Shown one piece after another: positions 9,117-39,070 of a stretch of DNA of 64,000 nt; the stretch's first letter is position 1; each line of letters opens with the position of its first letter. Under the pieces are notes generated by a model. The model saw only the letters and a program-made list of their open reading frames with translations. It had not been told where the DNA came from and did not search any database. The position numbers and the translations under genes are program-made. The DNA comes from Alphaproteobacteria bacterium. Its GTDB lineage: Bacteria > Pseudomonadota > Alphaproteobacteria > UBA828. The stretch covers positions 79,938 to 143,937 of the forward strand of contig JBFXKW010000002.1 of the NCBI GenBank assembly GCA_050173345.1, read 5' to 3'.

Positions 9117-10050
9117 CGAGCCTCCGCTCGGCCCGGCCATGGGCCAGGGTGAACGGCAAGGTGATCAGCCCGACCACGGCGGCGAACACCAGCGTCTGCG
9201 CGGCGGCGAGCCCGATGTCGAACTGCTGGATGGCGACGCGGTAGATGTAGAAGCTCGACACCGTGGTCGCCTGCCCCGGCCCGCCGCCGGTGAGCACGAA
9301 CACCAGGTCGAAGACCTTGAACGCGATGATCAGCTTGAGCAGCGCGATCGCGATGAGGGCCGGCGCCAGCATCGGCAGCGTGATGTGCCAGACCCGGCGC
9401 CAACCGCTCGCGCCGTCGAGGCGGGCCGCCTCGTAGATCTCGCCCGGCAAGGTCTGCAATGCCGCATAGACCATCAGCGCGACGAACGGCGTCCACTGCC
9501 AGACATCGGCCAGGCACACGAAGGGAAACGCGAAGCTCGGCGAGCCGAGGAACGACACCGGCTCGCCGATCACGCCGAGCCAGTTGAGGAAGCCGTTGAG
9601 CCAGCCGCCCTTCGGCATCAGCAGCAACTGCCAGATCACGCCGACGGTGACCGGCGGCGTCATCAGCGGCAGCAGGATGAGCGTGCGCATCAGCGCGCGG
9701 CCGCGCACCGCGCGGTCCATCAGCAGCGCAACGGCGAAGCCGAGCACCATCGAGACCGCGGTGGTCAGGAGGGCATAAGCCGCCGAGCGGCCGAGCGAGC
9801 CGGTGAAGCGCGGCTCGCCGAACGCCTCGCCAAAGTTCTCGAAGCCGACCCAGCCGCGGAACGGCGTGCCCAGGTTCGAATCCGAGAACGAGAGCAAAGC
9901 GAGATAGATGAACGGATAGACGGTGAACACGGTGAGCCCCGCGACCAGCGGGACCACCATGCCCCAGGCGGCGAACCGGCGGCCCGCCCGCGGACGATCG
10001 AGCGCAAAACGGGCGCGCAAGCCGTTCAGCGAGCCAGCCGCCGGCGTCAT
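9112..10050 (-). CDS. Carbohydrate ABC transporter permease (MalF/UgpA-like)
   Basis: 312 aa, six predicted TM segments. EAA motif 'EAARLDGASGWRRVWHITLPMLAPAL'. Confidence 0.85.
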   Translation of the reverse strand: MTPAAGSLNGLRARFALDRPRAGRRFAAWGMVVPLVAGLTVFTVYPFIYLALLSFSDSNLGTPFRGWVGFENFGEAFGEPRFTGSLGRSAAYALLTTAVSMVLGFAVALLMDRAVRGRALMRTLILLPLMTPPVTVGVIWQLLLMPKGGWLNGFLNWLGVIGEPVSFLGSPSFAFPFVCLADVWQWTPFVALMVYAALQTLPGEIYEAARLDGASGWRRVWHITLPMLAPALIAIALLKLIIAFKVFDLVFVLTGGGPGQATTVSSFYIYRVAIQQFDIGLAAAQTLVFAAVVGLITLPFTLAHGRAERRLA

Positions 10051-15734: not shown

Positions 15735-16493
15735 CTATGTCGGTCGGTCCTTGCGGCGGCGCGGCCGTTCGAGCTTGGCCGCGCCGAGATAGATGCGGCG
15801 CACCTCCTCATGACTCTCGATCTCGGCGAGCGAGCCCTCGGCGAAGATGCGGCCGTAGTGCATCACCGTGATCGGCGCGCCGAGCTGGCGGACGAATGCC
15901 ATGTCGTGCTCGACGACGATGGCGGCGACCCCCTCATCGTTGACGGCCCGGATCAGGCGGACGGTCGCCTCGGTCTCCTCGGGGCCCATGCCGGCGGTCG
16001 GCTCGTCGAGCAGGAGCAGCTTCGGCTTCATGGCGAGCGCCATGCCGATGGCGAGCCATTGCTTCTGGCCGTGGGCGAGGCTGCCGGCGAGCTGGTGCTC
16101 GGTGCCCGCGAGGTTGAGGCGGGAGAGCATGCGCGCGATCTCGCCCTCGACCTCGCGCCGGCCGAAATGATGGCGCAGCGGCAGCAGCAGGTTGTGGCGC
16201 ACGGTGAGGTCCGAATAGACCGCGAGGTTCTGGAACTTGACGCCGATGCCGAGATGGGCGCGCTGGTGCGGCCCGAGGCGCGTCACCTCGCGCCCGGCGA
16301 AGCGGATCGCGCCGGCATCGGCCCGCACGCTGCCGAGCAGGAGCTTGAAGAGCGTGCTCTTGCCCGCGCCGTTCGGCCCGATGATGCAGCGGAGCGCGCC
16401 GGGTGCGATGCTGAGCGCGACGTCGCTCACCGCCTGGACGCCGCCGAACCGCTTGGAGACACCGCGCGCTTCGAGCAGAAGCTCAGCGGGCAT
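15735..16493 (-). CDS. Amide/urea-type ABC transporter ATP-binding protein (LivG/UrtD-like)
   Basis: Walker A GPNGAGKST, signature, Walker B LLLLDEPTAGM. 252 aa. Confidence 0.9.
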   Translation of the reverse strand: MPAELLLEARGVSKRFGGVQAVSDVALSIAPGALRCIIGPNGAGKSTLFKLLLGSVRADAGAIRFAGREVTRLGPHQRAHLGIGVKFQNLAVYSDLTVRHNLLLPLRHHFGRREVEGEIARMLSRLNLAGTEHQLAGSLAHGQKQWLAIGMALAMKPKLLLLDEPTAGMGPEETEATVRLIRAVNDEGVAAIVVEHDMAFVRQLGAPITVMHYGRIFAEGSLAEIESHEEVRRIYLGAAKLERPRRRKDRPT

Positions 16494-17604
16494 GGCTGCC
16501 TCCCTCCCCGCGCCCGATGCCGAGGCGGTCGAACAACCGGCCGATGCGCTCGCCGAGGCCGACCAGGACGCCCTCCGGCATCAGCAGCATGCCGCCCAAG
16601 AGGATGCCGCCGAGCACCACGAAGGCGATGTCGCCCTGGAGCGCGAGCTTCTGCGACAGCCAGACCAGGAACACGGTGCCGAGCACGGTCGCGGTCAGGC
16701 TCTTGCGCCCGGCCACCGCGACCCAGATGACCGGCAGGATGTTGTAGTAGACGCCGAACACGTTGGGCGTGATGAAGTTGCCCCACGACACATAAAGGAT
16801 GCCGGAGAGCGAGGCGAGCAGCGCCGAGAGGCAGAACACGGCGAGCTGCAGCAGGCGCACGTCGTAGCCGAGCGCCTCGGTGCGGTCCGGGTCCTCGCGG
16901 ATGGCGACCAGGACATGGCCGAGCCGCGAATTGACCAGCGCGCGTAAGCCCAGATAGCAGAGCACGCCGAGGCCGAGCGTCAGGTAGTAGAACGCCTGGG
17001 AGCGGCCGCCGAACTCGATCATGCCGCCTTCGCCGAAGCCGAGCGTGAGCGAGGGCGGCTCGCGGATCACGCCCGAGAAGCGGCCGAGCCCGTTATTGCC
17101 GCCGAGATGGGCGTTGCCGATGAACCAGCCCTGGCCTGCGGTCTGGTTGAGGAAGGTCTCGATTAGGAGCGTCACCACCAGCATCAGGATCGCGACATAG
17201 ACACCCTTGAGCCGCGCGTAGAACATGATCCAGCCGAGCAGCGCCGCGACCAGCACGGGAAAGCCGAGGCCGGCGAGCAGCGCGAGCCAGGTGTTGCCGT
17301 GCGCCTCGATCAGGTTGATGCCGACGATGCCGTAGGCATAGCCGCCAAGCCCGAGGAAGGCCGACTGGCCGAGGCTCAGGATGCCGGCGAAGCCCCAGAT
17401 CAGGCAGAGCCCGAGCGCGAGGAACACGTTGCTCAGAAAATTGCTGAAGTTGAGCAGCTCATAGCGCGACAGGAAGGCGGGCGCGACCGCCATCACGGCG
17501 ACGAGCACGGCGAACACCAGCCAGAACGGCAGCGACCTGCCGGTCTCGAGCGGGCCGTTGACCGGCCCGAGCAGGCGGTCGAGGAAGGCTTCGGTGCGCG
17601 CCAT
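16483..17604 (-). CDS. Branched-chain/amide ABC transporter permease (LivM/UrtC-like)
   Basis: 373 aa, polytopic membrane protein with the LivM-type conserved core. It overlaps the ATPase start by 11 nt. Confidence 0.85.
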   Translation of the reverse strand: MARTEAFLDRLLGPVNGPLETGRSLPFWLVFAVLVAVMAVAPAFLSRYELLNFSNFLSNVFLALGLCLIWGFAGILSLGQSAFLGLGGYAYGIVGINLIEAHGNTWLALLAGLGFPVLVAALLGWIMFYARLKGVYVAILMLVVTLLIETFLNQTAGQGWFIGNAHLGGNNGLGRFSGVIREPPSLTLGFGEGGMIEFGGRSQAFYYLTLGLGVLCYLGLRALVNSRLGHVLVAIREDPDRTEALGYDVRLLQLAVFCLSALLASLSGILYVSWGNFITPNVFGVYYNILPVIWVAVAGRKSLTATVLGTVFLVWLSQKLALQGDIAFVVLGGILLGGMLLMPEGVLVGLGERIGRLFDRLGIGRGEGGSHAR

Positions 17605-17610
17605 GCCGCG

Positions 17611-18501
17611 TCAGCCCCGCCGCGATTCGAGCCGGCGCCGCTCGATCCAATCCGAGATGCCGGACGGCATCAGCCGGATCAGCACGAAGGCGAAGACCAG
17701 CATCGCCACCTGGCCGAGCAGGATGTTGAACTGGTTGGTGAAGACCGTCTTGACCGCGCCGAGCGAGAGCACGCTGGCGAGCAGGCCGGAGACCAGCTCC
17801 GCGCCGCCGCCGACCACCACCGTGATGAAGGCCTGCGGCGTGTAGCTCTGGCCGTAGAACGGGCCGATCGTCGAGGTCAGCGCAAGCAGCCCGCCGGCGA
17901 GGCCGGCCAGCATGGTGCCGAGCCCGAAGGTCAGGGTGTAGATGCGCGCGACGTCGACGCCGAGCGCGCGCGCCATGCTCGGGTCCTGCATGGTGGCGCG
18001 TGCATGCAGGCCGAAGCGCGTGAACCTGAAGAGCGCCCAGACCGCGGCGATCAGCACGAGCCCCATCGCGAAGATGAAGAGGCGATAGTACGAGAACGAC
18101 AGCTCGCCCACGGCGAAGCTGCCGAACGGCGTCGGCACGCTCTTGATCAGCGGGCCAAGCACGAGAAAGGCGCCCTGGCTCAGGATCAGGCTGATGCCCC
18201 AGGTCGCGACCAGCGAAGCGAGCAGCGCGCCGTAGAAGCGCCGCACGACCAGGCGCTCCAGCACGATGCCGACGATGCCGGCGCCGATTCCGCCGAAGAT
18301 GACGGCGAGCGGCGTCGGTATGCCGGCATAGTGCGAGAACGAGGTGATGTAGGCGCCGATCATCATCATCTCGCCGTGCGCCATGTTGATGACGCCCATC
18401 ATGCCGAAGATGACGATGAGGCCGATCGCCGCGAGCACGAGGAGGGCGATCGTGTCCGCGTACTGATAGAGCAGGCTGACGATGAAGGTCAGCGTATCCA
18501 T
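17611..18501 (-). CDS. Branched-chain/amide ABC transporter permease (LivH/UrtB-like)
   Basis: 296 aa, eight hydrophobic segments. LivH-family motif 'MAHGEMMMIGAY'. Confidence 0.85.
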   Translation of the reverse strand: MDTLTFIVSLLYQYADTIALLVLAAIGLIVIFGMMGVINMAHGEMMMIGAYITSFSHYAGIPTPLAVIFGGIGAGIVGIVLERLVVRRFYGALLASLVATWGISLILSQGAFLVLGPLIKSVPTPFGSFAVGELSFSYYRLFIFAMGLVLIAAVWALFRFTRFGLHARATMQDPSMARALGVDVARIYTLTFGLGTMLAGLAGGLLALTSTIGPFYGQSYTPQAFITVVVGGGAELVSGLLASVLSLGAVKTVFTNQFNILLGQVAMLVFAFVLIRLMPSGISDWIERRRLESRRG

Positions 18502-20103: not shown

Positions 20104-20838
20104 TCAGGAGAGCAGCTGCATCTCGCAGGCGCGCGCCACGGCCTGAGCACGCGTGGTGGCGCCCATCTTGCGCATGGCGCGCTTGAAGTACACCCGTACC
20201 GTCTCGTGCGAGAGGCCGAGGATGAGCGCGACCTCCTCCGTCGTCTTGCCTGCCGCGGCCCAGCGCAGGCATTCGCGCTCGCGCATGCTCAGCGGCGCGT
20301 CGTCGGAAACCTCGACGAACTGCGGAAAGTGCTCCCGCGCCGCTTCATGAAACACATGAGTGAGGAAAAGCAGGCGCTCCGAATGCTGCTCGATGCGCCG
20401 CGCCCAGCCCCGGTCGCTCTTCTCCCCGACCACGGTGACGAAGCCGAAATGCCCCGGCGTGTGCACGGGCACGGTAAAGCCCTCGACGAGCCCGAAATCG
20501 GCGAGGTAGCGCCATGCCTTAGTCTCGAGCGGCGACAGGTCCGTCCGCCTGCGGACCGAGTCCCAGTCGAACGCGACGCGGCCGTCGAAGCACGCATGAT
20601 AGTAGGGGCATTGCGCGTTATAGAGGTGCCAGGCCTCGTCCCAACCCGGCGGGAAATTGAACGAGCGATGACGGTACACGCGCCAGCGCCCGTCGACGCC
20701 CTGTGCGGCGCCCCTCACGAAGCCGGCGACGAGGCGGTGAACCCCGATCTCGCCCGCCGCCCGTGTCAGGACGCCGAGCGCGGCATCCATGCTGTCGGTG
20801 GCGAAGATCTGCTCGCGAAGCTGCTCACGGGTTTGCAT
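20104..20838 (-). CDS. LuxR-family transcriptional regulator (N-terminal ligand/autoinducer-binding-like domain plus C-terminal HTH)
   Basis: C-terminal 'LSMRERECLRWAAAGKTTEEVALILGLSHETVRVYFKRAMRKMGATTRAQAV' is a canonical LuxR/GerE HTH. A ~170-aa N-terminal domain precedes it. The gene is immediately downstream of the fmd operon. Confidence 0.75.
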   Translation of the reverse strand: MQTREQLREQIFATDSMDAALGVLTRAAGEIGVHRLVAGFVRGAAQGVDGRWRVYRHRSFNFPPGWDEAWHLYNAQCPYYHACFDGRVAFDWDSVRRRTDLSPLETKAWRYLADFGLVEGFTVPVHTPGHFGFVTVVGEKSDRGWARRIEQHSERLLFLTHVFHEAAREHFPQFVEVSDDAPLSMRERECLRWAAAGKTTEEVALILGLSHETVRVYFKRAMRKMGATTRAQAVARACEMQLLS

Positions 20839-20969: not shown

Positions 20970-23900
20970 TCAGAACAGTTCGAGCTGCCGGTCCGGCGCC
21001 TTCGGGGCGAGCGCCGCCATGCGGCTGCGCTCGATAAGCGCGGCCTCGATGTCGTTGAGGAACGGCGAGGCCGGAAGATCGCGCACCGCGCCGCGCCAGG
21101 AGCGCTTCTCGGCGCGGCAGAGGAACAAGCGGTCCTTGGCGCGCGTCATGCCGACGTAGAAGAGGCGCCGCTCCTCCTCCTGCGCGGCCGCATCGCCTTG
21201 GCCGCCGAAGCGCAGCGGCAGGATGCCGTCCTCCAGCCCGACGATGAAGACGACCGGGAACTCCAGCCCCTTGGCCGCGTGCAGCGTCAGCAGAGAAACC
21301 CGGTCCGCGCGCGGATCCCAGCCATCCGCCTCGCTGGTCTGCGCCAGCGCATCGGCGAAGCGCCGAACGTCGCCGTCGCAGGTTTCGGCGAGCGCCAGGA
21401 GTTGCCGAAGCACGGACTCCGGCAAGCGCGGGGCAGCTTCATCCGACGCACCGGCGAGACGACCCGCCACCTCCTTCACCCGCGCGACCAGGTCCGCCAC
21501 GCTTGCGTCTGCATCGAGCTGTTGCATCAACGCCTGCACCGCCGGCATCTCGGCGAGCGGCGCGTGGCCGTACTTGCCGAACGGCATGCCGGAGCGCGCC
21601 AGCGCCTCGCAGAGCGGTGCCGCCTGCGCGTCGGTCCGGTACAGCACGGCGAAATCGGCGAACGACAGGCCCGCTGCCCCGCCATGCGCCGCGCGCCCGC
21701 TGTCGATCGAGAAGAAGCTGTGGCCGCCGATCATGGCCTCGATCGTCTGCACCACGAACTCCGCCTCGGCACGCTCGCTGCGCGCAACGTGGATCGTCAC
21801 GCGCTCCTGCATGTCGCGCACCACCTCGCCGATCGCGTCCTCGCTCGCGACCGGCGCGATGACCTGCGACGAGGCGCTGACGATCGTCCCGCTCGAGCGA
21901 TAGTTGCGCGCCAGCCGGAGCGTGGCGGCATCGGGATAGTCCGCCACGAAGCGCGCGAAGCATGACGCATCCGCGCCGCGGAAGCCGTAGATCGCCTGGT
22001 TGGGGTCGCCGATGACGCAGAGATTGGCGCCCGGCGGCGCGAGCAGCCGGAGCAGCCGGTATTGCTGCGCGTCGACGTCCTGGAACTCGTCGACGCAGAG
22101 CCAGCGGAACTGCTCCCGATAGCGCGCCGCCAGTGCCGGGTTCGCCTCCAGCGCCTGCACCGCGAGCCCGACCAGGTCGTCGAAGTCGATCCAGTCGCGC
22201 GCTGCGAGCGCGCGTTGATAGGCCGAGAGCGCCTTGGCCACGTCGTCCTCCGGCGGCGCGCCCGCGCGCTTGGCGAGCGAGATCGCGCGCAGCAGGGAGC
22301 GTGCCTTGCGCGCCGAAACGCCCATCGCCTCCGCGAGCAGCGCCTCGCGCGCGGCCTCGTCGGCGATGCGGAAATCGCCGCGCAGCCCGGCCGCATCGTG
22401 GTGTTCCCTCAGGATGGCGAGCCCCAGGGAATGGAAGGTGTGGACCGGGATCGCCCGCCAGGCCTGCGGCACGAGCGCTGCGAGCCGCTCGGCCATCTCG
22501 GCCGCGGCGCGCCGGGTGAAGGTGATGGCGAGGCAGGCCTCGGGCGGGGCGCCGCATGCCCCGATGAGATGGGCGATGCGATGGGCCAGCACGCGCGTCT
22601 TGCCCGCGCCGGGGCCCGCGACGATCAGGAGCGGCCCGGCGACCCGCTCGGCCGCCTCGCGCTGCGCCTCGTCGAGCGCATCGAGGGTGCCGGTCGCCGG
22701 CGCCATCGGCGCATCGCGAGGCGTGCTTGCCGCCGGCTCGGCTGGCGGGCTCGCCTTCGGCCGGCGCTCAACCTCGCCCTTTGGTGTCAAGGCAGCGCGG
22801 TTCGCCGCTGGCAGCTCGAACAGCAGGCCGCCGCCCTTTTGCCGGCGCAGCTCGTCGGGCTTGAACAGGCGGATCACGCCGTACTCGCCGTCATAGCCCG
22901 GCTCGCGGATCACTTGCCCCGCGCGCAGCCGCGCGATGGCTTCCGCCAGCACCGGCGCGTCGGCCTGCGCGATGTCCTCGACCGGCACGCTCTCCAGGAT
23001 CGCAAGCTCCGGCCCGAGCCGCGCCAACAGGCGCTCATAGCGCTGCCCGACCGACTTGCTCCCGACGCCGGTGCCTTCGAGCTCCGCCAGCATCTCGGGC
23101 AGCGGCACGAGGCTGAGCGTCTTGCCTGCCTTGGGCGGCGGCGTCACCTGATCTGCCGGCCGGTCGGCGAGCGTCTCGATCCGGTGCAGCACGCCGACGG
23201 TCAGCGGCGTGCCGCACACCGGGCAGAGGCCATCATGTGCCCTGGTCTCCGCCGGCGTGAAGCGGACGCCGCATTTGCGGTGCCCGTCCATGTGGTACTT
23301 GCCTTCCTCCGGGAAGAACTCGACCGTGCCGACGAAGCCCGCGCCGGCCTTGAGCCCTTCCAGGATCGCAAAGTAATCGAGCGCGGTGTCGTAGGTCGTG
23401 GCCTCGCGGCCGATCTTGGGCGGCGAATGCGCGTCCGAGTTCGAGACCAGCCGGTAGCGGTCGAGCGAGGAGATGCGCCAGTTCATCTCGGGGTCGGAGG
23501 AGAGCCCGGTCTCGACCGCGAAGACGTGCTCGGCGAGATCGCCATAGCAATCCTCGATCGAGTCGAAGCCCGACTTCGAGCCGAGCGCCGCGAACCACGG
23601 CGTCCAGATATGCGCCGGGATGAGGTAGGAATGCGGGCCGGTGTCGAGCGTGATCTCGAGCAGGTCGCGGGAATCGAGGCCGAGGATCGGCCGGCCGTCG
23701 GACGCCAGATTGCCGATGCGCGCGAGGCTGGCGACCAGCCGGTCGGCGGCGTCCATGTCGGGCACGAAGATCAGGTGATGGACCTTCCTGACCTTGTCGC
23801 CCTTCTTGTAGATGGTGGAGATCTCGACCTCGAGCATGAAGCGCACCGGCCGGCCGGCGCAGGCAGCCGGCGCCTGGCGCTCGACCTCCGCCTCGATCTC

Positions 23901-24104
23901 GGGGCGCAGGCGGAACAGGCCGGGCTCGGCCGGCACCAGGGTTTCCTTGATCTGCGCGCGCCAAGCCGGATGGGTGAAATCGCCGGTGCCGACGATCGTG
24001 ATGCCCTTCTTGAGACCCCACAGCGCGAGATGCTCGAGGTCGGCGTTCTTCGCCGTCGCGCGCGAGTATTTCGAGTGGATCTGGACGTCGACGTGGAAGC
24101 GCAT
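20970..24104 (-). CDS. PHP-family phosphoesterase / Zn-ribbon / UvrD-like SF1 helicase fusion protein (1044 aa)
   Basis: The N-terminal ~300 aa carry PHP motifs (HVDVQIHSKYS, HIWTPWF, SNSDAHS). A Cys4 ribbon follows (GHRKCGV...CPVCGTP). The C-terminus is a UvrD/Rep helicase with Walker A 'AGPGAGKT', 'VDEFQD' and 'TLHAAKGLEFPVVFIVG'. Confidence 0.85.
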   Translation of the reverse strand: MRFHVDVQIHSKYSRATAKNADLEHLALWGLKKGITIVGTGDFTHPAWRAQIKETLVPAEPGLFRLRPEIEAEVERQAPAACAGRPVRFMLEVEISTIYKKGDKVRKVHHLIFVPDMDAADRLVASLARIGNLASDGRPILGLDSRDLLEITLDTGPHSYLIPAHIWTPWFAALGSKSGFDSIEDCYGDLAEHVFAVETGLSSDPEMNWRISSLDRYRLVSNSDAHSPPKIGREATTYDTALDYFAILEGLKAGAGFVGTVEFFPEEGKYHMDGHRKCGVRFTPAETRAHDGLCPVCGTPLTVGVLHRIETLADRPADQVTPPPKAGKTLSLVPLPEMLAELEGTGVGSKSVGQRYERLLARLGPELAILESVPVEDIAQADAPVLAEAIARLRAGQVIREPGYDGEYGVIRLFKPDELRRQKGGGLLFELPAANRAALTPKGEVERRPKASPPAEPAASTPRDAPMAPATGTLDALDEAQREAAERVAGPLLIVAGPGAGKTRVLAHRIAHLIGACGAPPEACLAITFTRRAAAEMAERLAALVPQAWRAIPVHTFHSLGLAILREHHDAAGLRGDFRIADEAAREALLAEAMGVSARKARSLLRAISLAKRAGAPPEDDVAKALSAYQRALAARDWIDFDDLVGLAVQALEANPALAARYREQFRWLCVDEFQDVDAQQYRLLRLLAPPGANLCVIGDPNQAIYGFRGADASCFARFVADYPDAATLRLARNYRSSGTIVSASSQVIAPVASEDAIGEVVRDMQERVTIHVARSERAEAEFVVQTIEAMIGGHSFFSIDSGRAAHGGAAGLSFADFAVLYRTDAQAAPLCEALARSGMPFGKYGHAPLAEMPAVQALMQQLDADASVADLVARVKEVAGRLAGASDEAAPRLPESVLRQLLALAETCDGDVRRFADALAQTSEADGWDPRADRVSLLTLHAAKGLEFPVVFIVGLEDGILPLRFGGQGDAAAQEEERRLFYVGMTRAKDRLFLCRAEKRSWRGAVRDLPASPFLNDIEAALIERSRMAALAPKAPDRQLELF

Positions 24105-24164: not shown

Positions 24165-24207
24165 CGTCGAGTCGGCGGCGGCGGGGAAGCGCTATCGGCC
24201 TCCCCGC
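24165..24207 (-). terminator. Candidate intrinsic terminator downstream of the encapsulin gene
   Basis: GC-rich perfect hairpin gcggcgggga(ag…cc)tccccgccgc lies immediately 3' of the encapsulin stop on the transcribed strand. It is followed on that strand by a short ttttcc tract. Confidence 0.4.
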
Positions 24208-24229
24208 CGCCGGCCGGCGAACGCTGGCG

Positions 24230-25605: not shown

Positions 25606-28600
25606 TCATGCCGGCTCGGCGTGCGGGGGGTCTCCGCCGTCGCCGACCATCACGGCCCGCCGGAGCGTGCCGGGTTGCCGCAGCAGCGCCTTGCGGGCCT
25701 CCCATTGCGACGCCGGGTCCAGCGTCTCCAGGTATTGCACCTCGCCGCCGGCCAGGACGGCCAATGGCAGGCCGTCGCGATAGAGCAGCCGGTTGCCGGC
25801 CAGGGTCGAGAGCTTCGCCGAGCCTGCGAGGATGCCGATCAGGTTGAGCGGATCGGCGCCGGAGAGCGAGACGAACTCGCCGGTCTCCGGCTTCCGCCTC
25901 GTCTCGCGCAGCCTGCCGATGGCTTCGGGCAGCGCGAACTGCTCGCCGGGGAAGCCCGCGACGAAGCGGCCGCCCCGGATTTCGCCGCGCGCCTCGAGCC
26001 GGCGATAGACCCGCAGCAGGTCGCGCCAGGGCGGCAGCCAATCCGCCTCGCGGCCGGTCAGGCGTCCGAACACGACGCCGTAGCGGCGCAGCAGCGTGCG
26101 CGCGATGTGCTCGACCGCGTTCGCCGCATCCTCGGCCGTGCCCGGCCGCGAGCGACGCGCCAGCGCCCAGCGCCCGGCATTCTCCATGTCGAACACGGCG
26201 GTGCGATGGCGCCGCCGCGCCCCGGCGAGCGGCCGGCGCCGCGCCGCCGGCACGAGCAGCGCGCGCAGGCCTGCGAAGCTGTCCGAATTGACGAGGCCGA
26301 GCGCGACCAGTTCCGCAAGCGCCTCCTCGACCTGCGTGCGCAGCAATCCCGTACCCTCGACCAGCTCGTCGAAGAACAGTGCGCCGCGCTCGCGCAGGCA
26401 TTGCATCACGGCCTGCGCGCGGACGCTCGGCCGCGCCGTTTCGTCGGCCGGTGCCGGCGGTCCCCAATGCCGTGCGTGACGCCGCGCCAGCAAGGCGATC
26501 GGCGTGGTGCGCACCGGCGAGACGCCGCGCTCGCCTTCGCCCGTCCGCGCTGCACGCGGGCGCAGCCGCGCCCACGAGATGCGCCCGGCAAGGCAGAGAT
26601 CGTCGAGCCAGGCCGGGTCGTAGCCAGCGAGGCGTGCCGGCAGGATTTCGCTCTCCCACGCTCCGGCCGGCGCCTCGAAGCCTTCGAGCTGCCCGACGAT
26701 CGCCTCGACCGCCTCCGGGCCTTCCATGCGCGCGTCCGCGGTCACGCGCTGCCAGCCGAGCAGGAAGCGCAGGAAGTCGCGCGCCGAGACCGGCTCGATC
26801 TCCGCGCGCAGCCGCTTGATCGTGTACTGGTGGATGCGCGCGAGCAGGCGGCGCTCGCACCATTCCTCGCCGGCGCCGAGCGGGCTGAACCGGCCGCGCA
26901 TGGCGAAGCCTTCGGCCTCGAGCGCGGCGAATGCCGAGGCGAGCTCGCGCGCCGCGATGCCGAGCGCTTCCGCGAGAGCGCCCTGCTCGACCGGCCCCTG
27001 GCCTTCGAGCCGGCCGCGCACGATCTCGACCAGCGCCTCGTCGCGCAGCCATTCCCGCGCATAGGCCTCGGGCGCGGCGATGTCCGGCTCGGCCGGTACA
27101 TCGGGCCACAGCGCGCGGAACTGCGGCAACCGTTCGGCCGCGACCCAGAGCGCCTTGCCCGGCGCGCCCAGCCGGGTGACGCGCTTGTCGCGCGCGAGCT
27201 GCGCCAGGAATTCGTTCCAGCCCGGCCCGGCCTCCGCCTCTTCCTCGTTCAAGGCGCCGAGCCAGACCAGCGCATCGTGCAGCTCGTCGGCGTTGCGCGC
27301 ATCGGGCCACGCCTCGGCGCGCACGCGCGTGATGGCCTCGGCATCGAGCCGGCCGAACTCGGCCGCGCTCTCGGGCCCGGCCCAGTGCCGGCTCATCACC
27401 GCCTGGGTGCGGCGCTCCTCGAGCGGCGCATCGTCGAGATAGGCATAGGGCCGGGCGGAGAGCACCTCGAGCGCGAGCGGCGAGGGCTGGGTCAGGTCGC
27501 GCGCCACCACCTCGATCTCGCCGGCCTCCAGCCGGGCGAGCAGCCGCTCCAGGCCCGCGACGTCCATCGCCTCGGTCAGGCAGTCGCCAATGGTCTGGTT
27601 GACCAGCGGGTGGTCCGGGATTTCGCGCTCGCCGACCAGGTTCTCGGCGCAGGCGAGCTGATCGGGGAACACGGTGGCGATCAGGTCTTCAGCCTCCATG
27701 CGCACGAATTGCGGCGGCACCTTCTTGCCGCCGCGGAAGCGCGGCAAGGCGAGCGCGACGCTCGCCACCCAGCGCCAGCGCGTCAGGAACATCGGCGCGT
27801 CCAAGAGCGCCTGGATCAGCACGTCTCTCGCGCTCGCCGCATGCAGATAGCCGCGCACCTCGGCGAGCTCGAAGCTGTGCGCCGCGGTGAGCGAGAGTAC
27901 GATGTTGTCCTCGGTCGCGGCCGCCTGAAGCTCGAAGTTGAAGCGCCGGCAGAACCGCTTGCGCAATGCCAGGCCCCAGGCCCGGTTGAGCCGGCTGCCA
28001 TAGGGCGAATGGATGACGAGCTGCATGCCGCCGGCCTCGTCGAAGAAGCGCTCGAACACCAGCCGCTCCTGCGTCGGCAGGCAGCCGAGCGCCGCCTTGG
28101 CCGCGGCGAGATAGTCGGCGAGCTCGCGCGCCGGGGTCTCCTCGATACCCAACTCCTCGACCAGCCAGCACACCGCGTCGTCGCCGTCCAGACGCGCGGC
28201 GACCTCGGCACGCAGGCGAGACACGGCGAGCGACAGCTCGTCGCTGCGGCCCGGCGCCTCGCCCAGCCAGAACGGGATGGTCGGCGCCAAGCCATTGGCG
28301 TCCTCGACGCGCACCGTGCCGCGGTCGACGCGCAGGATGCGATAGGCATGATTGCCGAGCAGGAAGACGTCGCCGGCCAGGCTCTCGACCGCGAAGTCCT
28401 CGTTCACCGTGCCGATGAACTGGCTCTCCGGCTCGAGCAGGACGCGATAGTCGGCGTTGTCGGGAATCGCACCGCCCGAGGTCAGCGCGGTCAGCCGCGC
28501 GCCGCGCCGGCCGCGCAGCACGTGATTGACCGCATCGTGATGGATCAGCGCGCCGCGCCGGCCGCGGCCGGTGGCGAAGCCCTCGCCGAGCATCCGGACG

Positions 28601-29976
28601 ATCGCGTCGAAGTCTTCGCGCGGCAGCGCGCGATAGGGCCAGGCGCGGCGGAGCAGCGCATAGAGATCGTCCTCGCGCCATTCCTGCGCCGCGACCTCGG
28701 CAACGATCTGCTGGGCCAGCACGTCGAGCGGCCGCGTCGGGATCGAGAGGCGATCAAGCTCGCCCTGCCTGACGCTGCCGATCAGCGCCGCGCACTCGAC
28801 CAGCTCGTCGCGCGAGAGCGGGAAGAGGCGCCCCTTGGGCGTGCCGCCGACCGCGTGGCCGGAGCGCCCGACCCGCTGCAGGAAACTCGCGATCGAGCGC
28901 GGCGAGCCAAGCTGGCAGACCAGCTCCACCTCGCCGATGTCGATGCCGAGCTCGAGCGACGCGGTCGCGACCAAGGCCCGCAACGCGCCGCGCTTGAGGC
29001 GCTGCTCGGCGTCCAGCCGGTGCTCCTTGGCGAGGCTGCCATGATGGGCGGCGACCTGCGCGGCATCCAGCCGCTGCGACAGGTGATGCGCCACCCGCTC
29101 GGCCATGCGCCGCGTGTTGACGAAGATCAGCGTGGTGCGGTGCGCCTCGATGAGCTGCGCGAGGCGGTCATAGGTCTGCTCCCAGACGTCGTTCGACATC
29201 ACCGCTTCGAGCGGCGCGGGCGGGATTTCGAGGGCGAGGTCGCGCGCCCGCTGATGGCCGGTGTCGACGATCCTGCAAGCGCCGGCCGCCTCGCCGGCTG
29301 GCCCGGCGCCGGTCAGGAAGCGGGCGACCTCCTCGATCGGCTTCTGCGTCGCGGAGAGCCCGATGCGCTGCAGCGGGCGGCCGCAGAGCGCCTCCAGCCG
29401 TTCGAGCGACAGCGCGAGATGCGCCCCGCGCTTGTTGGGCGCGAGGGCGTGGATCTCGTCGACGATCACGCTCCGCGTGGTGTGCAGCATGGCGCGGCCG
29501 GATTCCGAGCCGAGCAGGATATAGAGCGATTCTGGCGTGGTCACCACGATGTGCGGCGGCCGGCGCAGCGCCCGAACACGGTCACCCGCCGGCGTGTCGC
29601 CGGTGCGTACCCAGGTGCGGATTTCGACGTCGGGCTGACCTTGCGCGCGCAGCGCATCGCGGATGCCGGCGAGCGGCGCCTCCAGATTGCGCTGGATGTC
29701 GTTCGACAGCGCCTTCAGGGGCGAGACGTAGACGACCCGCGTCTCGTCGGGCAAGTCGCCCACGAGGCCGTGCCGGGCCAGCTCGTCGAGCGCGGCGAGG
29801 AAGGCGGCGAGCGTCTTGCCCGAGCCGGTCGGCGCCGCGATCAGCACGTTCTCGCGCGCGCGGATCGCCGGCCAGGCCTGCGCCTGCGCCGCGGTCGGCG
29901 CCGCGAAGCGGCCTTCGAACCAGGCGGCGACCGCCGGATGGAACAGCGTCTTCAGGTCGAGGGCGGTGGCGTCCAT
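25606..29976 (-). CDS. lhr: Lhr-family ATP-dependent DNA helicase (large helicase-related protein, 1456 aa)
   Basis: Walker A 'APTGSGKT', DEIH box, SAT, and the Lhr-core WH/beta-barrel/C-terminal extension. The size matches Lhr. The entire antisense strand also forms a 1478-aa ORF, which is a GC artefact. Confidence 0.9.
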
Positions 29977-31668: not shown

Positions 31669-32604
31669 CTACTCCGCCACCGCCACCTTTGGCGCCGGCG
31701 CCGCAAGCAAGCTCGCGATCGGCGTCGCGTGCCAGCCTTGCTTGCGCTTCTCCCAATAGAGGTCGCGGAGCTGGCAGGTGGCGAGGCCGGGCGCGCCATT
31801 GCCGATCGGTTTGTCGTTGACCCGCGTGATCGGGATGACGCCGCCGCCGGTCGAGGAGATGAAGACCTCGTCGGCCCCGGTCAGGTCCTCGGGGCGAAGC
31901 TCGGCCGCCTCAGCGGCGACGCCGATCGACTGGCAGAGGTCGAACACGGTGCGCCGCGTGATGCCTTCGAGCATGTTCTCGCCCGGCGTGCGCGCCTTAT
32001 TGTTCTTGATGATCCAGACGTTGAAGCCCGGCCCCTCGGTGAGGAAGCCGTCCATCGAGAGCAGCACCGGCGCATCCGCGCCTGCGTCGAGCGCCTCGAA
32101 CTGGGCGCTCGTCAGGTCCATGCGGTTGAAGTTCTTGCAGCGCTGGTTGATGGCGGCGTCCGGCGCGCGCCGCGTCTTGGCGATCCACAGATGGCCGCCG
32201 GTCTGCGTGCGCTCCTTCGGGATGACCGAGAAGTACGGCACCGAATAGGCGATGAACTCGTTGATGCAGGTGCGCGGGTCGCCGAGCTCGTTGCCGTCGG
32301 CATAGCGGCCGCGCGTGCAGAGGATGAAGACCAGGCCCGCTTCGATGCCCGAGCGGTCGACGCACTGCGCCATGATGTGCGCCATCTCGTCGTCGCTGAC
32401 CGGCGGCTTCAGGCGGACGCCCGCGCAGGAGGCGTGGAACCGCTCGATATGGTCGGCGAGCCGGAAGAAGTTGCCGTCGGCGAACGACAGCGCGTCGAAC
32501 ACCACGTCGCTCTTGGTGAAGGCCGGATCGAGTATGCCGACGGTGGCATCGTCGACCGGCATGTAGCGCCCCTTCTGGTAGGCAATCCCCTTGGAATCGG
32601 TCAT
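31669..32604 (-). CDS. Aminotransferase class IV (branched-chain/D-amino-acid aminotransferase fold)
   Basis: Start is the ATG at 32604 (MTDSKGIAYQKGRYMP), preceded by GGAGGGAG. Fold-type IV PLP motifs are present (…EVFISSTGGGVIPITRV…). Confidence 0.8.
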   Translation of the reverse strand: MTDSKGIAYQKGRYMPVDDATVGILDPAFTKSDVVFDALSFADGNFFRLADHIERFHASCAGVRLKPPVSDDEMAHIMAQCVDRSGIEAGLVFILCTRGRYADGNELGDPRTCINEFIAYSVPYFSVIPKERTQTGGHLWIAKTRRAPDAAINQRCKNFNRMDLTSAQFEALDAGADAPVLLSMDGFLTEGPGFNVWIIKNNKARTPGENMLEGITRRTVFDLCQSIGVAAEAAELRPEDLTGADEVFISSTGGGVIPITRVNDKPIGNGAPGLATCQLRDLYWEKRKQGWHATPIASLLAAPAPKVAVAE

Positions 32605-33091
32605 CTCGCAGTCTCCCTCCCGCCGGCATGCCCGGCCCCACGCCACGGCACCACCCGACGCCTGAACGGACACGGTAGGGCAGCGGCGAGGACGGGGTCA
32701 ATCGCGGCGGGAGGGGCGAAATTCGAGGCAAGCGCGAGGCAGGCGGGCGACATGCGGCAATAGTCGCCTGCATTCACGCCTGATCGACCGCACGACCACC
32801 CCGCGGACCGATAAGATGGCGCTCGCGCTCAAGGGATGCCGCCACAACTGCGCGGCGGCTGGCAAATCGCAAGGCCGCTAGCATCGCCTATTGACGAGCC
32901 CCGCGTTCAATGGTCCACAGCCGGATGATCGTGGAGACCGGGCGCACATGTATAAAATATAAGCACGGCTTTTATCATTGTTTTTCCAACATAATCTATT
33001 CGAATCGCACGAATTCCTGAGAACGCAACAAAATACTCATACCCTGAACGCCTCGCGTGCGCTTTGCTCGCGAGTATTCGGGAGATCCACC

Positions 33092-34237
33092 ATGACAACT
33101 CAGCAGCACGTTTCCATTCCCAACGATGTGCGCACCTGGGCCAACGACGGTTCCCCCATTCCGGATTGGGTACGAACGCACATAGTGGACAAGATGACGC
33201 CCAACGGTACTTTCCTCCTCTCAACGCCTATTGGGACCGCCAGGGTTCATCTCGGCAATATCGTGATTGAGCATTGTGGCGAACTATGGTCCCGAACACC
33301 CGATGAGGTTTCCAAACTCATTGAAGGACTCCAAGCGGAAACCACGCCGGCCGCAGCCGCGATCGGACCGGGCAAATCAGCCCAGTTCGGAACCAGAAGT
33401 AAGTCGGGGAAAGGCAAGAAGCGCGGCACCCAACGCAAAATGGCTTTCCGCCTACCCATCGGCTCCATGCCGAGCATCGAATGGGTGCATACCTCGGAGC
33501 TTGTCGTCGACCAATCCTACCAACGCTCTATCGACAACGAAGGATCGCGCCGGCTGATAGCTAGCATCGCAGCCAACTTCGATTGGCGGCTCTGCGCGCC
33601 GCTCGTCGTCTCGCGGCGTGCAGATGGCTTGAAAGTCATCATCGATGGGCAGCATCGCTGGGCAGCAGCTGTTCGCCGAGGTGATCTACCTCAGCTGCCC
33701 TGCTGTCTCTTCACCTATGCCAGCCCGGAGGATGAGGCGCGTATGTTCATTGTCGCCAACAGGGCGCGCAAACCGATGAACCGCTTGGATGACTTTCATG
33801 CTGCGCTTGCCGCAGCGGACGAGGATGCATTGGAGATCCTGCGCCTGGTGACCGAGGCTGGGCTGACGATCGCGCGGCATACATCCTTCACGGCATGGAA
33901 GCCGGGAGAGGTGGCCTTCACGTCGTCCATCGCGACCGCGCTCCGTCGGCATGAAGACGCGGTGGTATCAGCGGCGCTGACATGCATGGCCGAGGCATTC
34001 GAGGGGCAATCCCTGACCCATGGCGCATCAGTGTTCGGAGCCTTGATCAAAATCTTCGCCAATCCACCCGAGGGTTTCGACCCCGACAGGCTCGTGCCGG
34101 TGCTGCGCCGCTTCGACATGGCGAGCTTAGCCAAAATCGTTCGAGATCAAAGAGGCGTGGATGCTCGGGTAAGCACCGTATTCACGGCCATAGTAGAAGC
34201 GTTGGCCAACCTCGATGATGATTCCCCGATGGCATGA
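33092..34237 (+). CDS. ParB/Srx-fold DGQHR-motif protein (ParB-like nuclease domain) of unknown function, island-encoded
   Basis: ATG at 33092 after GGAGA. The central domain 'LVVDQSYQRSID…LIASIAANFDWRLCAPLVVSRRADGLKVIIDGQHRWAAA' carries the ParB/DndB-type DGQHR signature. It is flanked by unrelated N- and C-terminal regions. GC content of the gene and its flanks is clearly below the window average. Confidence 0.55.
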   Translation: MTTQQHVSIPNDVRTWANDGSPIPDWVRTHIVDKMTPNGTFLLSTPIGTARVHLGNIVIEHCGELWSRTPDEVSKLIEGLQAETTPAAAAIGPGKSAQFGTRSKSGKGKKRGTQRKMAFRLPIGSMPSIEWVHTSELVVDQSYQRSIDNEGSRRLIASIAANFDWRLCAPLVVSRRADGLKVIIDGQHRWAAAVRRGDLPQLPCCLFTYASPEDEARMFIVANRARKPMNRLDDFHAALAAADEDALEILRLVTEAGLTIARHTSFTAWKPGEVAFTSSIATALRRHEDAVVSAALTCMAEAFEGQSLTHGASVFGALIKIFANPPEGFDPDRLVPVLRRFDMASLAKIVRDQRGVDARVSTVFTAIVEALANLDDDSPMA

Positions 34238-34246
34238 GGGGAGGAG

Positions 34247-34280
34247 GTGCCGTGTTCGGGGTTGTCCGGAACACGGCACC
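34247..34280 (+). terminator. Candidate intrinsic terminator after the ParB-like gene
   Basis: Perfect 14-bp stem ggtgccgtgttcgg / ccggaacacggcacc with a 6-nt loop, 10 nt after the stop. It is followed by tatcgtttca. Confidence 0.45.
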
Positions 34281-34403
34281 TATCGTTTCACCAGAACGAT
34301 CATCTACGCTGGACGCCGCCGCAATGTCTCTCTCCGGACAGGACAAGGAGGTAGAAGGCGGGCCGTAGACGATAGTGATGATCACTACGCTTTCGCTGTG
34401 GTC

Positions 34404-34829
34404 CTATCTTGAAGCCGAAGTTCCGTTCGGGGCGATCAAAGAGAGCTTGGGGAAATAGGTCCGATAACGCGCCGCATCCCTCGTCAATAGCGAATATCCG
34501 GCTACAGCCGCGTGGGCGCCTATGAAGAAGTCCGGAAGCGGCAAACTCTTTGTTCCGCTTCGCTGCCGATAGGCGAGGAACGCCTTGCCAGCGAGAAAGG
34601 CCGCTTCGTACGGGATGGACTCACGATCGAACATGGTTTTCGGGAGCGCGGCATCGAGATCTTCGATGCGTGAATATCGAATCGACACCTCAGCATAGAT
34701 GACCGGATTGATGACGAGGCGGTACCGATCGGCGGCGCGCTTGAGGGCCTCCGCGGACCACGCAAGCCAACGCGCGTCTTCCGTCATGACGTCAAGAAGA
34801 ACATTAGCGTCAACCAGGACGGCTGTCAT
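34404..34829 (-). CDS. vapC: PIN-domain ribonuclease toxin VapC
   Basis: 'MTAVLVDANVLLDV' with the first acidic PIN residue. 141 aa. Its start abuts the stop of the upstream antitoxin gene. Confidence 0.8.
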   Translation of the reverse strand: MTAVLVDANVLLDVMTEDARWLAWSAEALKRAADRYRLVINPVIYAEVSIRYSRIEDLDAALPKTMFDRESIPYEAAFLAGKAFLAYRQRSGTKSLPLPDFFIGAHAAVAGYSLLTRDAARYRTYFPKLSLIAPNGTSASR

Positions 34830-35060
34830 TCAGTCATCGCGGGTCAGCGCCATTATGGCATCGGTGCTCATCGACACGTCGCCGCGGCCCCGCAGATGGG
34901 CAACGAAACGAGCGCCGCGACCGCCCTTGCCGGCCTTGGCACGAACGATACGCACAACCTTGCCGTCGAACTCGAACTCCACCTCGGTATGGGGCAACAG
35001 GCCCGCCCGTTCACGGATATCGACTGGGATAGTCACCTGCCCCTTCGACGTAATGCGCAT
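34830..35060 (-). CDS. vapB: AbrB/SpoVT-type antitoxin VapB
   Basis: 76 aa. 'ITSKGQVTIPVDIRERAGL' swapped-hairpin AbrB motif. The stop is adjacent to the vapC start. Confidence 0.7.
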   Translation of the reverse strand: MRITSKGQVTIPVDIRERAGLLPHTEVEFEFDGKVVRIVRAKAGKGGRGARFVAHLRGRGDVSMSTDAIMALTRDD

Positions 35061-35227
35061 GAGTCGTCTCCTTACTCTTACATGTAAGAGTAAGGAGATT
35101 TGTGCCGAATTTCAAGCCGCCCATCGACGCCGGGACAAGACCGTCGCGGCCTCTCGATCACAGCAGCACGGTTGATAGCAATCCGGGGAGGGGCAGTGGC
35201 GCAGCATGGAGCGCCATGGCGCAAATT

Positions 35228-35317
35228 TGGCGGAGGGGGCGGGATTCGAACCCGCGATACGTGTTACCGTATGCACGCTTTCCAAGCGTGTGCCTTAAGC
35301 CACTCGGCCACCCCTCC
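35228..35317 (-). tRNA. tRNA-Ser (anticodon GGA), 90 nt with a long variable arm
   Basis: The reverse complement reads GGAGGGGTGGCCGAGTGGCTTAAGGCACACGCTTGGAAAGCGTG…GGTTCGAATCCCGCCCCCTCCGCCA. It has a 7-bp acceptor stem, D-arm GCCGAGTGG…AAGGC, anticodon loop TTGGAAA, T-arm GGTTCGAATCC and an encoded CCA. Confidence 0.85.
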
Positions 35318-35420
35318 TGCCGTGCCGCAGGGCCGGCAGGGCGGACAATAGCAAGAATGGGGAAGCCTGCAACACGCGCCGGCCGCCGGCAGCGGGCCGG
35401 TTTGCTTCCATGATTCGATA

Positions 35421-35440
35421 AGGCAATTGTATACTTGACT
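35421..35440. repeat. Left terminal inverted repeat of the IS1595-family element
   Basis: aggcaattgtatacttgact. Its exact reverse complement is at 37645-37664. Confidence 0.75.
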
Positions 35441-35493
35441 ACACAACATGCCCGAACCATCTGAAACCCGACAGGCCGGCGAAGAGGTTACGA

Positions 35494-36129
35494 TTACTCC
35501 GAGGATGACGGACGCGGGGATTGCTGCCTTGCAGCTTTTTTCCGGGTCGGCTTCTGACGTTTTGGTTGGTGCGGTTTATAGCGCCATGAGGCATGCAGAA
35601 GGTGGGCGAATGTCCTCACGGTATCTGCATGAGCCCGCGCCGAGAAGTCGCCGTGATTTATCAAAAGATACGCCATGATCTTGCGCAGATCGGCGGTCAT
35701 ATCATTTAGAAGGGTAGGCGATACTGGAATTTCTTTGCGGTGTTTGTCCGTGAGGGCGACCAAAAAATTGGAGCTAATTCGTTCGTCAATCTTGTCGGGG
35801 ACTGGGTCCGCTCCGTAATGCAAGATCTGATTGCGCACATCGTTGATGTGCCCGAGCTGTGTTAGCACCGCATCGGTTTCCTTCCTGCGCTCTTGGTCGG
35901 TCTCGGATATCAGCATCAAGCGACGCAGCAAGCCATTTGCGGTATCCACGCGAGCGCCCGAGAGAAGAGCGCGCGCGACAGGGAGGGTAAGCTTCGCCAC
36001 GCTGGAAACTGCTATGAATAGAGCGCCTTCGACGGATGAGAAGGCATCTACAAATTCACCGAGGGATTCATGATACCTTCGAGTTTGCTCTTGTTCGCCG
36101 AGCATGCCGTGAGGCCCATAGTTAGCCAT
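35494..36129 (-). CDS. Hypothetical protein, passenger gene inside the IS element
   Basis: A 254-aa track ORF. The probable start is the internal ATG at 36129 (MANYGPHGMLGEQEQ…). GC is low and there are no recognisable motifs. The basic C-terminal tail (KPHQPKRQKPTRKKAARQQ) reads into the IR. Confidence 0.4.
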   Translation of the reverse strand: MANYGPHGMLGEQEQTRRYHESLGEFVDAFSSVEGALFIAVSSVAKLTLPVARALLSGARVDTANGLLRRLMLISETDQERRKETDAVLTQLGHINDVRNQILHYGADPVPDKIDERISSNFLVALTDKHRKEIPVSPTLLNDMTADLRKIMAYLLINHGDFSARAHADTVRTFAHLLHASWRYKPHQPKRQKPTRKKAARQQSPRPSSSE

Positions 36130-39057: not shown

Positions 39058-39070
39058 ACGGGAGGGCGAG

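Follow-up and report, generated by a model that had tools for sequence, protein, structure and literature searches.

What does a gene do that joins a PHP-type nuclease to a complete UvrD-type helicase in one polypeptide? The question was raised by an open reading frame (ORF) at 20970–24104 on the minus strand of a 64,000-nucleotide stretch, hereafter the window, of an Alphaproteobacteria bacterium of the lineage UBA828 (assembly GCA_050173345.1, contig JBFXKW010000002.1, positions 79,938–143,937 of the forward strand), for which the initial annotation had suggested either the processing of DNA ends or a defence function. Alignments and domain searches indicate that the gene encodes, in a single polypeptide, a complete endonuclease Q (EndoQ) module, a flexible linker of ~50 residues, a superfamily 1A (SF1A) helicase and a C-terminal putative β-clamp-binding peptide. 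According to the ORF list and the translation, the ORF is the longest of the region, begins with ATG and has zero internal stops. Because long antisense ORFs are present as well at the ~70% G+C measured here, it is homology, not ORF length, that establishes 20970–24104 as a real gene. A 100% identical protein is deposited at NCBI as MGD9536416.1, under the name ‘UvrD-helicase domain-containing protein’, from the Alphaproteobacteria metagenome-assembled genome (MAG) GCA_050249575.1, and fragments of relatives carry the NCBI name ‘endonuclease Q family protein’. All motifs quoted in the initial annotation were located in the intact 1044-aa translation (Table 1), and its three-part architecture of PHP-type nuclease, zinc ribbon and UvrD-type helicase was borne out by Pfam, NCBIfam and alignment to the archaeal PfuEndoQ; the domain junction, which it had placed at ~23150–23250, lies instead at residues 424–472.

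The fusion recurs in a wide range of bacteria. Searches with the full-length protein retrieved at least 120 orthologue clusters of 1014–1099 aa, with 62–82% identity and 98–100% coverage, and these 120 are used below for all counts of close orthologues. A HMMER search with the EndoQ module alone yielded 3767 representatives at 50% identity clustering, 1118 of them at E ≤ 1e-30; among the 150 nearest such representatives, 126 were ≥900 aa, hereafter the diverse fusions, and 118 had a downstream Walker A and DExQD motif. A scan of species-representative genomes gave at least 600 matching stretches, the best 80 of which served for the locus analyses. About 60 of these 80 loci encode complete fusions (~880 aa or more) from about ten phyla, and the others are mostly cut off at contig ends, with a few frameshifted or split genes and about five true short forms. 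The 80 loci include Alphaproteobacteria, Binatia, Gemmatimonas, Melainabacteria, Acidobacteriota, Verrucomicrobiota, Myxococcota (Sorangium), Planctomycetota, Chloroflexota, Endomicrobia and many Actinomycetes (Micromonospora, Salinispora, Streptomyces and Saccharopolyspora), with cultured Micromonospora, Salinispora, Streptomyces and Sorangium among them. Reviews limit EndoQ to Euryarchaeota and a few bacteria, a narrow range that is contradicted by the at least 600 stretches and by the taxa of the best 80 loci. Across phyla, the EndoQ half retains 58–71% identity and the helicase half a median of 48%; since the helicase halves are ~48% identical to one another versus ~30% to canonical UvrD/PcrA, the two halves have evolved together. 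An assembly fusion of two genes, which the initial annotation had named as a possible fault of its reading, is excluded by the at least 120 full-length clusters together with the long representatives and the complete species loci. Taken by homology, the fusion is real, old and widespread. A split-gene ‘Rosetta stone’ was also sought, and the few seemingly short forms with a helicase directly downstream (L009, L040, L051 and L068) look like MAG frameshifts or split gene calls.

The nature of the N-terminal part was resolved by comparison with PfuEndoQ, which consists of a PHP catalytic, a zinc-binding and, C-terminally, a helical domain (PMC5961232). In a phmmer search of the PDB, residues 6–422 of the query aligned with residues 6–389 of the PfuEndoQ chain over all three domains (E 2.7e-44, ~29% identity), and an AlphaFold2 (AF2) model built from 59 orthologues was matched by Foldseek to the PfuEndoQ structures 5zb8 and 7k30 at a target-normalised TM of 0.70–0.72 (E 5.5e-22), in agreement with the sequence alignment. 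Its guess of the NCBIfam model TIGR00375 was right as well: the model matched residues 99–411 with E 4e-45, at 154.8 bits versus a curated cut-off of 326.6. This model is of the type ‘hypoth_equivalog’ and its 374 positions correspond to the length of the short forms, to which the fusion clade is ~29% identical. Pfam PF27218 (MJ0043_C) is precomputed on the record for the protein. The Pfam PHP model PF02811 gave no match to the protein and PHP_C alone matched weakly (E 0.019); the PHP assignment is therefore taken from PfuEndoQ, a homologue in which crystallography has revealed the PHP fold. On alignment and model alike, the N-terminal ~423 residues are identified as a full-length EndoQ homologue, not a generic PHP phosphoesterase; of the earlier assignment, the PHP fold stands through this homology and the generic 3′–5′ exonuclease or phosphatase falls. 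A ~25-residue insertion relative to PfuEndoQ lies within the PHP domain (residues 67–100), and the helical C-terminal domain, with AF2 helices at 335–394, closes with a conserved GYDGEYG hairpin.

The residues that matter in PfuEndoQ are known through mutagenesis and structures (PMC5961232, PMC8307549), and their counterparts are listed in Table 1. Six of the seven metal-site residues are identical in the window protein, the exception being Gln8 in place of Pfu His8. His10, Glu94, His109, His165, Gly200, Ser202, Asp224 and His226 are invariant in two family alignments (A1 and A2), and the wedge residue Trp170 is near-invariant; Pfu His195, the counterpart of His226, is conserved, yet it is not a ligand of either zinc in the Pfu structure. 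In the second domain, His275, Cys278, Cys294 and Cys297 align with Pfu Cys249, Cys252, Cys268 and Cys271. The initial annotation had described a Cys4 ribbon here; residues 260–310 hold only three Cys, all invariant across the fusion clade, and the fourth ligand position is taken by the near-invariant His275. This His-Cys3 variant is plausibly still a zinc site.

Beyond the EndoQ module, a Pro/Ala-rich linker with a pLDDT of 31–35 over residues 425–470 in the AF2 model leads into the helicase half. Pfam UvrD-helicase matched residues 477–723 (E 1e-68, 232.5 bits versus a gathering cut-off of 23) and UvrD_C residues 875–998 (118.9 bits versus 25.6), the PDB phmmer search reached E 6e-81 to D. 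radiodurans UvrD and to PcrA, and Foldseek reached E 1e-39 to UvrD/PcrA-type structures at ~30% identity. Helicase motifs I–VI are intact, among them GDPNQAIYGFRGA as motif III, and the motif residues are invariant in alignment A2. Query residues 474–860 align with E. coli UvrD 7–392 and residues 923–1035 with UvrD 544–652; between these blocks, the 2B domain is shortened to 62 aa in place of the ~151 aa of UvrD 393–543, i.e. ~90 fewer, and the C-terminal tail of ~60 residues of UvrD is absent, since the alignment stops at UvrD residue 652 (of 720), after which no more than 9 residues of the query remain. The NCBIfam equivalog scores reached 381 bits versus a cut-off of 911 for PcrA, 317 versus 951 for Rep and 303 versus 1144 for UvrD. 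At about one-third of the cut-offs, they set the helicase half apart from the orthologues of UvrD, PcrA and Rep, and uphold the earlier remark that the architecture is unlike that of UvrD, Rep, PcrA, AddAB and RecBCD. An insert relative to UvrD/PcrA/Rep, GGHSFFSIDSGR, was also observed in the 2A domain; it varies little or not at all among the close orthologues, occurs in only 20 of the 126 diverse fusions and is of low confidence in the AF2 model.

Two short peptides resemble ligands of the sliding clamp. The terminal QLELF fits the bacterial β-clamp consensus QL[DS]LF, with Q1040 and L1043 invariant in alignment A2. A Q-L-x-L-F-type C-terminus was found in 115 of the 120 close orthologues and 88 of the 126 diverse representatives, versus 7 of 3669 control ORFs (0.19%), and actinomycete C-termini read QLRL[LI]. 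C-terminal clamp motifs have been tabulated for long bacterial EndoQ homologues, and the C-terminal PIP box of the archaeal EndoQ binds PCNA, by which cleavage is stimulated (PMC4858679, table in Suppl. Fig. S1). We infer from the motif that the QLELF tail is a β-clamp-binding peptide. The second peptide sits at the junction, where short-form EndoQs end: a canonical Q-x-x-L-F, 12–36 residues past GYDGEYG, occurs in 61% of the diverse fusions versus 2.9% of control windows, and this junction motif goes beyond the 2016 table. In the clade of the window protein it has degenerated to GGLLF[DE]LP, with L428 invariant and F429 and P432 near-invariant in alignment A2, and may represent a retained second clamp contact.

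Table 1. Features of the EndoQ–helicase gene, equivalent residues of PfuEndoQ, and other features of the window
Feature	Position in window	Strand	Residues	Basis or remark
Whole gene, long-form bacterial endonuclease Q + UvrD-like helicase	20970–24104	−		ORF and translation, 1044 aa + stop
EndoQ catalytic PHP domain	23313–24104	−	1–264	alignment to PfuEndoQ 5zb8/7k30
EndoQ Zn-binding domain	23106–23312	−	265–333	alignment to PfuEndoQ
EndoQ C-terminal helical domain (MJ0043_C region)	22836–23105	−	334–423	aligned to Pfu 304–389
Disordered Pro/Ala-rich linker	22689–22835	−	424–472	composition and AF2
Junction peptide GGLLFELP, degenerate clamp-motif-like	22809–22832	−	425–432	linker start
UvrD/PcrA-like SF1A helicase	21000–22688	−	473–1035	Pfam, PDB phmmer, Foldseek
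Insert GGHSFFSIDSGR	21693–21728	−	793–804	2A domain
Putative β-sliding-clamp-binding motif QLELF	20973–20987	−	1040–1044	protein end ...DRQLELF
HVDVQIHSKYS			4–14	quoted motif, confirmed
HIWTPWF			165–171	quoted motif, confirmed
SDAHS			223–227	quoted motif, confirmed
CGV			278–280	quoted motif, confirmed
CPVCG			294–298	quoted motif, confirmed
AGPGAGKT			496–503	Walker A, confirmed
VDEFQD			671–676	helicase motif II, confirmed
GDPNQAIYGFRGA			699–711	helicase motif III
GLEFPVVF			946–953	helicase motif
GLEFPVVFIVG			946–956	quoted motif, confirmed
YVGMTRAKDRL			983–993	helicase motif
Gln8 codon	24081–24083	−	8	motif DVQIHS
Gln8 (Pfu His8)			8	metal residue; PfuEndoQ alignment
His10 (Pfu His10)			10	metal residue; PfuEndoQ alignment
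Glu94 (Pfu Glu76)			94	metal residue; PfuEndoQ alignment
His109 (Pfu His84)			109	metal residue; PfuEndoQ alignment
His165 (Pfu His139)			165	metal residue and base pocket; PfuEndoQ alignment
Trp170 (Pfu Trp144)			170	wedge; PfuEndoQ alignment
Gly200 (Pfu Gly169)			200	base pocket; PfuEndoQ alignment
Ser202 (Pfu Ser171)			202	base pocket; PfuEndoQ alignment
Asp224 (Pfu Asp193)			224	metal residue; PfuEndoQ alignment
His226 (Pfu His195)			226	conserved residue; PfuEndoQ alignment
GC-rich hairpin	24177–24211	−		125-bp gap from encapsulin stop to fusion start; ~14 paired positions, one bulge
Encapsulin shell protein (Linocin_M18), 272 aa	24230–25048	−		encapsulin operon
EncFtn, 122 aa	25053–25421	−		encapsulin operon
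Lhr helicase, 1456 aa, four winged-helix domains	25606–29976	−		gene calls and domains
LuxR-type regulator, autoinducer-binding domain	20104–20838	−		131 bp downstream of fusion
DUF6551 protein	32978–34237	+		low-GC stretch
PIN-domain toxin	34404–34829	−		low-GC stretch
tRNA-Ser(GGA)	35228–35317	−		low-GC stretch
IS1595-family transposase	36673–37599	−		low-GC stretch

How might a lesion-specific nickase and a helicase work together? In nucleotide-excision and mismatch repair, UvrD acts after incision, at nicks that repair endonucleases have left, and SF1A helicases move with 3′-to-5′ polarity. EndoQ leaves a 3′-OH and a 5′-P, and for the steps after its nick, either strand-displacement synthesis with a flap nuclease or removal ‘by helicase activity’ has been proposed, so a downstream helicase step is already on record (PMC4357722); EndoQ also remains bound to its nicked product (PMC5961232). 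The overall picture that we consider probable is a clamp-tethered nick-and-unwind repair of deaminated and abasic bases. As in the characterised EndoQs, the EndoQ module would flip out a deaminated or missing base (uracil, hypoxanthine, xanthine or an AP site), cut the phosphodiester bond immediately 5′ of the lesion to give a 3′-OH and a lesion-bearing 5′-phosphate, and linger on the nicked product. By analogy with the post-incision roles of UvrD and given the SF1A polarity, the tethered motor would then load at the nick, run 3′-to-5′ on the intact strand and peel away the lesion-bearing strand, by which it would also turn over the tightly bound nuclease, and a polymerase and a ligase would complete the repair. 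The QLELF tail, judged by its motif, would dock the enzyme on the DnaN sliding clamp, in parallel to the archaeal PIP box and PCNA. A farther-reaching version, which we put forward tentatively and with more doubt than belief, is that the EndoQ–UvrD fusion, and not the short enzyme of the Bacillus type, would be the main bacterial EndoQ among the relatives seen, and would act as an autonomous, glycosylase-independent, clamp-docked ‘nick-and-peel’ excision machine; as diverse members have two clamp peptides, at the junction and at the C-terminus, one enzyme could fill both β-dimer clefts.

Several points weigh against this picture. The TIGR00375 score of ~155 bits lies under the curated cut-off of ~327, and a metal ligand of PfuEndoQ, His8, is Gln in the window protein and in 25 of the 120 close clusters. 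Confidence in the AF2 model is low around the active-site loops, and the arrangement of the two halves is not reliably given by it (pTM 0.54). Since the 2B domain is shortened and the C-terminal tail is absent, the regulation of the motor may differ from that of UvrD. The motor is also dispensable in some lineages, because the approximately five short forms among the best 80 loci are close relatives that stand alone as EndoQs, and their surroundings within 10 kb contain no helicase. In principle, an EndoQ nick could be dealt with by bacterial Pol I in the absence of a helicase, which leaves the need for the motor unexplained, and everything in the mechanism beyond ‘EndoQ module plus SF1A helicase’ is what we infer.

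Among the alternatives, the one that survives best, though we think it unlikely, is that the motor acts before incision, as a clamp-tethered translocase that would carry the EndoQ module while scanning near forks, or that would destabilise the duplex for base flipping. It would accord with the two clamp-motif-like peptides at the junction and the C-terminus, with the cutting of both single-stranded DNA (ssDNA) and double-stranded DNA by archaeal and bacterial EndoQ and the PCNA linkage of the archaeal enzyme (PMC4357722, PMC8307549, PMC4858679), and with a reported enhancement of EndoQ cleavage by base-pair instability (PMC8438529). However, cutting of template ssDNA at a fork would produce double-strand breaks, and ATP is needed by no known EndoQ. 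The excision-repair precedents for UvrD-type motors are, moreover, post-incision.

The replacement at residue 8 raises a second alternative, that the EndoQ module is attenuated and serves as a damage-recognition or targeting domain that brings the helicase to lesions. Gln8 was found, as said, in 25 of the 120 close clusters, and in none of the 146 diverse representatives scorable at this position and none of the 80 best species loci, at a position that belongs to the six metal ligands His8, His10, Glu76, His84, His139 and Asp193 termed ‘completely conserved’ (PMC5961232); together with the low AF2 confidence at the active-site loops, this could speak for attenuation. On the other side, in all 25 Gln8 proteins the other metal ligands are retained together with base pocket, zinc site and helicase motifs, as would be expected if the enzyme were active. 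In PfuEndoQ, the H8A mutation leaves about half of the activity (PMC5961232), and the essential zinc ligands of PfuEndoQ, namely Glu76, His84 and His139 (PMC5961232, PMC8307549), are conserved here. Gln8 looks like a tolerated or adaptive change at one metal site, not decay, and may reflect a changed metal preference at that site; we give attenuation a low probability.

Somewhat less probable still is a single-gene anti-phage nuclease–helicase that would destroy incoming DNA with uracil or other non-canonical bases. Such a role would draw on the cleavage of dU-DNA by EndoQ and the defence role suggested for Bacillus EndoQ (PMC8307549), on the loss of the helicase or of the gene in some lineages, and on PADLOC matches of the helicase half to the GajB and RTasHel models (E 1e-76 to 1e-79). 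These matches, however, trace back to UvrD similarity of a general kind, and for the EndoQ half PADLOC gave none. Only the helicase half resembles GajB; the genes next to the fusion are those for encapsulin and LuxR, and neither a partner such as GajA nor any other recurrent neighbour was found. None of 50,697 phage records carries the EndoQ domain, and one of 72,556 plasmids does, which leaves little to a defence or mobility function, and the 58–71% cross-phylum identity of the EndoQ half and the clamp-binding-type tail look like those of a housekeeping repair enzyme. The defence function proposed in the initial annotation is not sustained by these results. Its other suggestion, a self-contained helicase–nuclease for end processing, taken as the resection of double-strand-break ends in the manner of AddAB, RecBCD or AdnAB, is very improbable and the wrong analogy, because, although AddA, RecB and AdnB likewise have an SF1A motor covalently joined to a nuclease, theirs lies at the C-terminus and is of the PD-(D/E)XK type, with DNA ends as the target of degradation, whereas that of the window protein is an N-terminal, lesion-specific PHP-fold nickase, i.e. 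an EndoQ with an intact base-flipping pocket, Pfam and NCBIfam revealed no PD-(D/E)XK domain, the AddA and RecB equivalog scores (136 versus 708 and 129 versus 696 bits) were 5–25 times under cut-offs, and no partner subunit gene is adjacent.

We then asked whether the genomic position bears on the function. Lhr, EncFtn, encapsulin, the fusion and LuxR are all on the minus strand, with the encapsulin operon between Lhr and the fusion, as the initial annotation had stated; the EncFtn and Linocin_M18 genes lie 4 bp apart and form a two-gene operon directly downstream of Lhr. Using tblastn, the Lhr, EncFtn, encapsulin, LuxR and PAS-HD proteins of the window were searched against the best 80 loci, each extended by up to 10 kb in both directions: EncFtn, encapsulin and LuxR were found in 0 of 80 loci within 10 kb, Lhr gave one weak match and PAS-HD one match. 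When 3745 flank ORFs were clustered de novo, no cluster exceeded 17 of the 80 loci, and the recurring ones reflect only Micromonosporaceae synteny. Relatives at 68–70% identity have unrelated surroundings (ABC transporters or PKS genes), often with flanking genes on the opposite strand. A conserved linkage to Lhr and encapsulin is thus ruled out by the tblastn searches, the flank clustering and the loci of two close relatives; the position beside Lhr and the encapsulin operon is incidental, and the gene shows the traits of a chromosomal housekeeping gene that stands alone. It is probably transcribed on its own, in agreement with the initial annotation. The hairpin that it had called terminator-like was recovered in the gap upstream of the fusion, where the 128-nt intergenic RNA folds with z = −2.9, and is possibly the terminator of the encapsulin operon; the hairpin has no directly following U-run, and a consensus terminator scan made no minus-strand call. 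A promoter scan found no sigma-70 promoter and is uninformative at this GC content, and no SOS box of the form GTTC-N7-GTTC occurs in the 125-bp upstream gap, with window-wide counts at chance level.

Some further observations were made on neighbouring genes and on the rest of the window. In ~15 Micromonosporaceae loci, a gene for a 441-aa calcineurin-like metallophosphoesterase lies upstream of the EndoQ–helicase gene on the same strand, at a median distance of 38 bp (e.g. L038 7538–8863). This pairing is confined to Micromonosporaceae and is reminiscent of the helicase/phosphoesterase pairing of Lhr with MPE. The LuxR-type regulator may be a LuxR solo, because no luxI-type synthase was seen among the called genes within 10 kb. 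Positions 32000–38000 have a low GC of 0.58–0.62 versus ~0.69 elsewhere and look like a small integrated island, with the genes listed in Table 1; two ORFs at 35494–36258 and 37720–39234, both on the minus strand, have no Pfam match. AT skew is high in the 2-kb windows 8001–10000 (0.30) and 16001–18000 (0.21), versus about ±0.1 elsewhere.

How new, then, is this gene? Shiraishi et al. published in 2016 a table of long bacterial EndoQ homologues, 941–1244 aa in length (Sci Rep, PMC4858679, Suppl. Fig. S1). It includes those of Inquilinus limosus (WP_034836501, 1056 aa), Zymomonas mobilis (WP_011241259, 1047 aa), Sorangium cellulosum (WP_012236160, 1089 aa) and Geobacter metallireducens (WP_004512662, 1075 aa), and others from Saccharopolyspora, Caldilinea and Desulfovibrio. 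They are similar to the window protein in length and in the QL[DS]LF-type motif at the extreme C-terminus, and Sorangium, Saccharopolyspora, Opitutaceae and Caldilinea are shared with the best 80 loci; the window protein differs in belonging to a Gln8, not His8, sub-clade. That table is confined to motif positions and nowhere calls the extension a helicase. A 2017 paper in Biosci Biotechnol Biochem, as described by Miyazono et al. in 2018, distinguishes three EndoQ families ‘based on the domain organization’ (PMC5961232). Our full-text literature search found no paper naming an EndoQ–helicase fusion and no biochemical or genetic study of the long form. Since long bacterial EndoQs and their C-terminal clamp motifs were already tabulated in 2016, the architecture is known, and databases already carry family models for both halves; the window gene is a Gln8-bearing, slightly unusual member of the family catalogued then, not a new kind of system.

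Comparison with characterised proteins places it further. With PfuEndoQ (5zb8, 7k30–7k33) it shares all three domains, the metal residues other than position 8, the Trp wedge, the Gly/Ser pocket and three of the four zinc ligands, and it differs in His8 to Gln and Cys249 to His and in that, where the archaeal enzyme ends in a PIP box for PCNA, it continues with a linker, a helicase of 560 residues and a clamp motif of the bacterial type. The short-form EndoQ of B. pumilus and B. subtilis is reported to nick at dU, dI and AP sites (Shiraishi et al. 2017), so that EndoQ is functional in bacteria; unlike the window protein, it has no helicase, and the two are distant, the sole Bacillales-type match obtained being a Brevibacillus protein with 29.6% identity over residues 107–411. 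With UvrD, PcrA and Rep (2is1, 4c2u, 1pjr and 1uaa), the helicase half shares the fold and all helicase motifs, and it is set apart from them as a non-orthologue by the 2B domain, the missing tail and the GGHSFFSIDSGR insert.

EndoQ is reported in several papers to serve as a uracil-detecting reagent in APOBEC and deaminase assays, and mesophilic, ATP-coupled EndoQ variants could have practical use. For the biology of the family, a conserved natural fusion of EndoQ with a UvrD-type helicase hints directly, on genomic grounds, at the helicase route after the EndoQ nick, and it offers a one-protein system in which this route downstream of EndoQ can be probed. If the ‘nick-and-peel’ proposal is true, the fusion would answer what follows EndoQ incision: a UvrD-type helicase.

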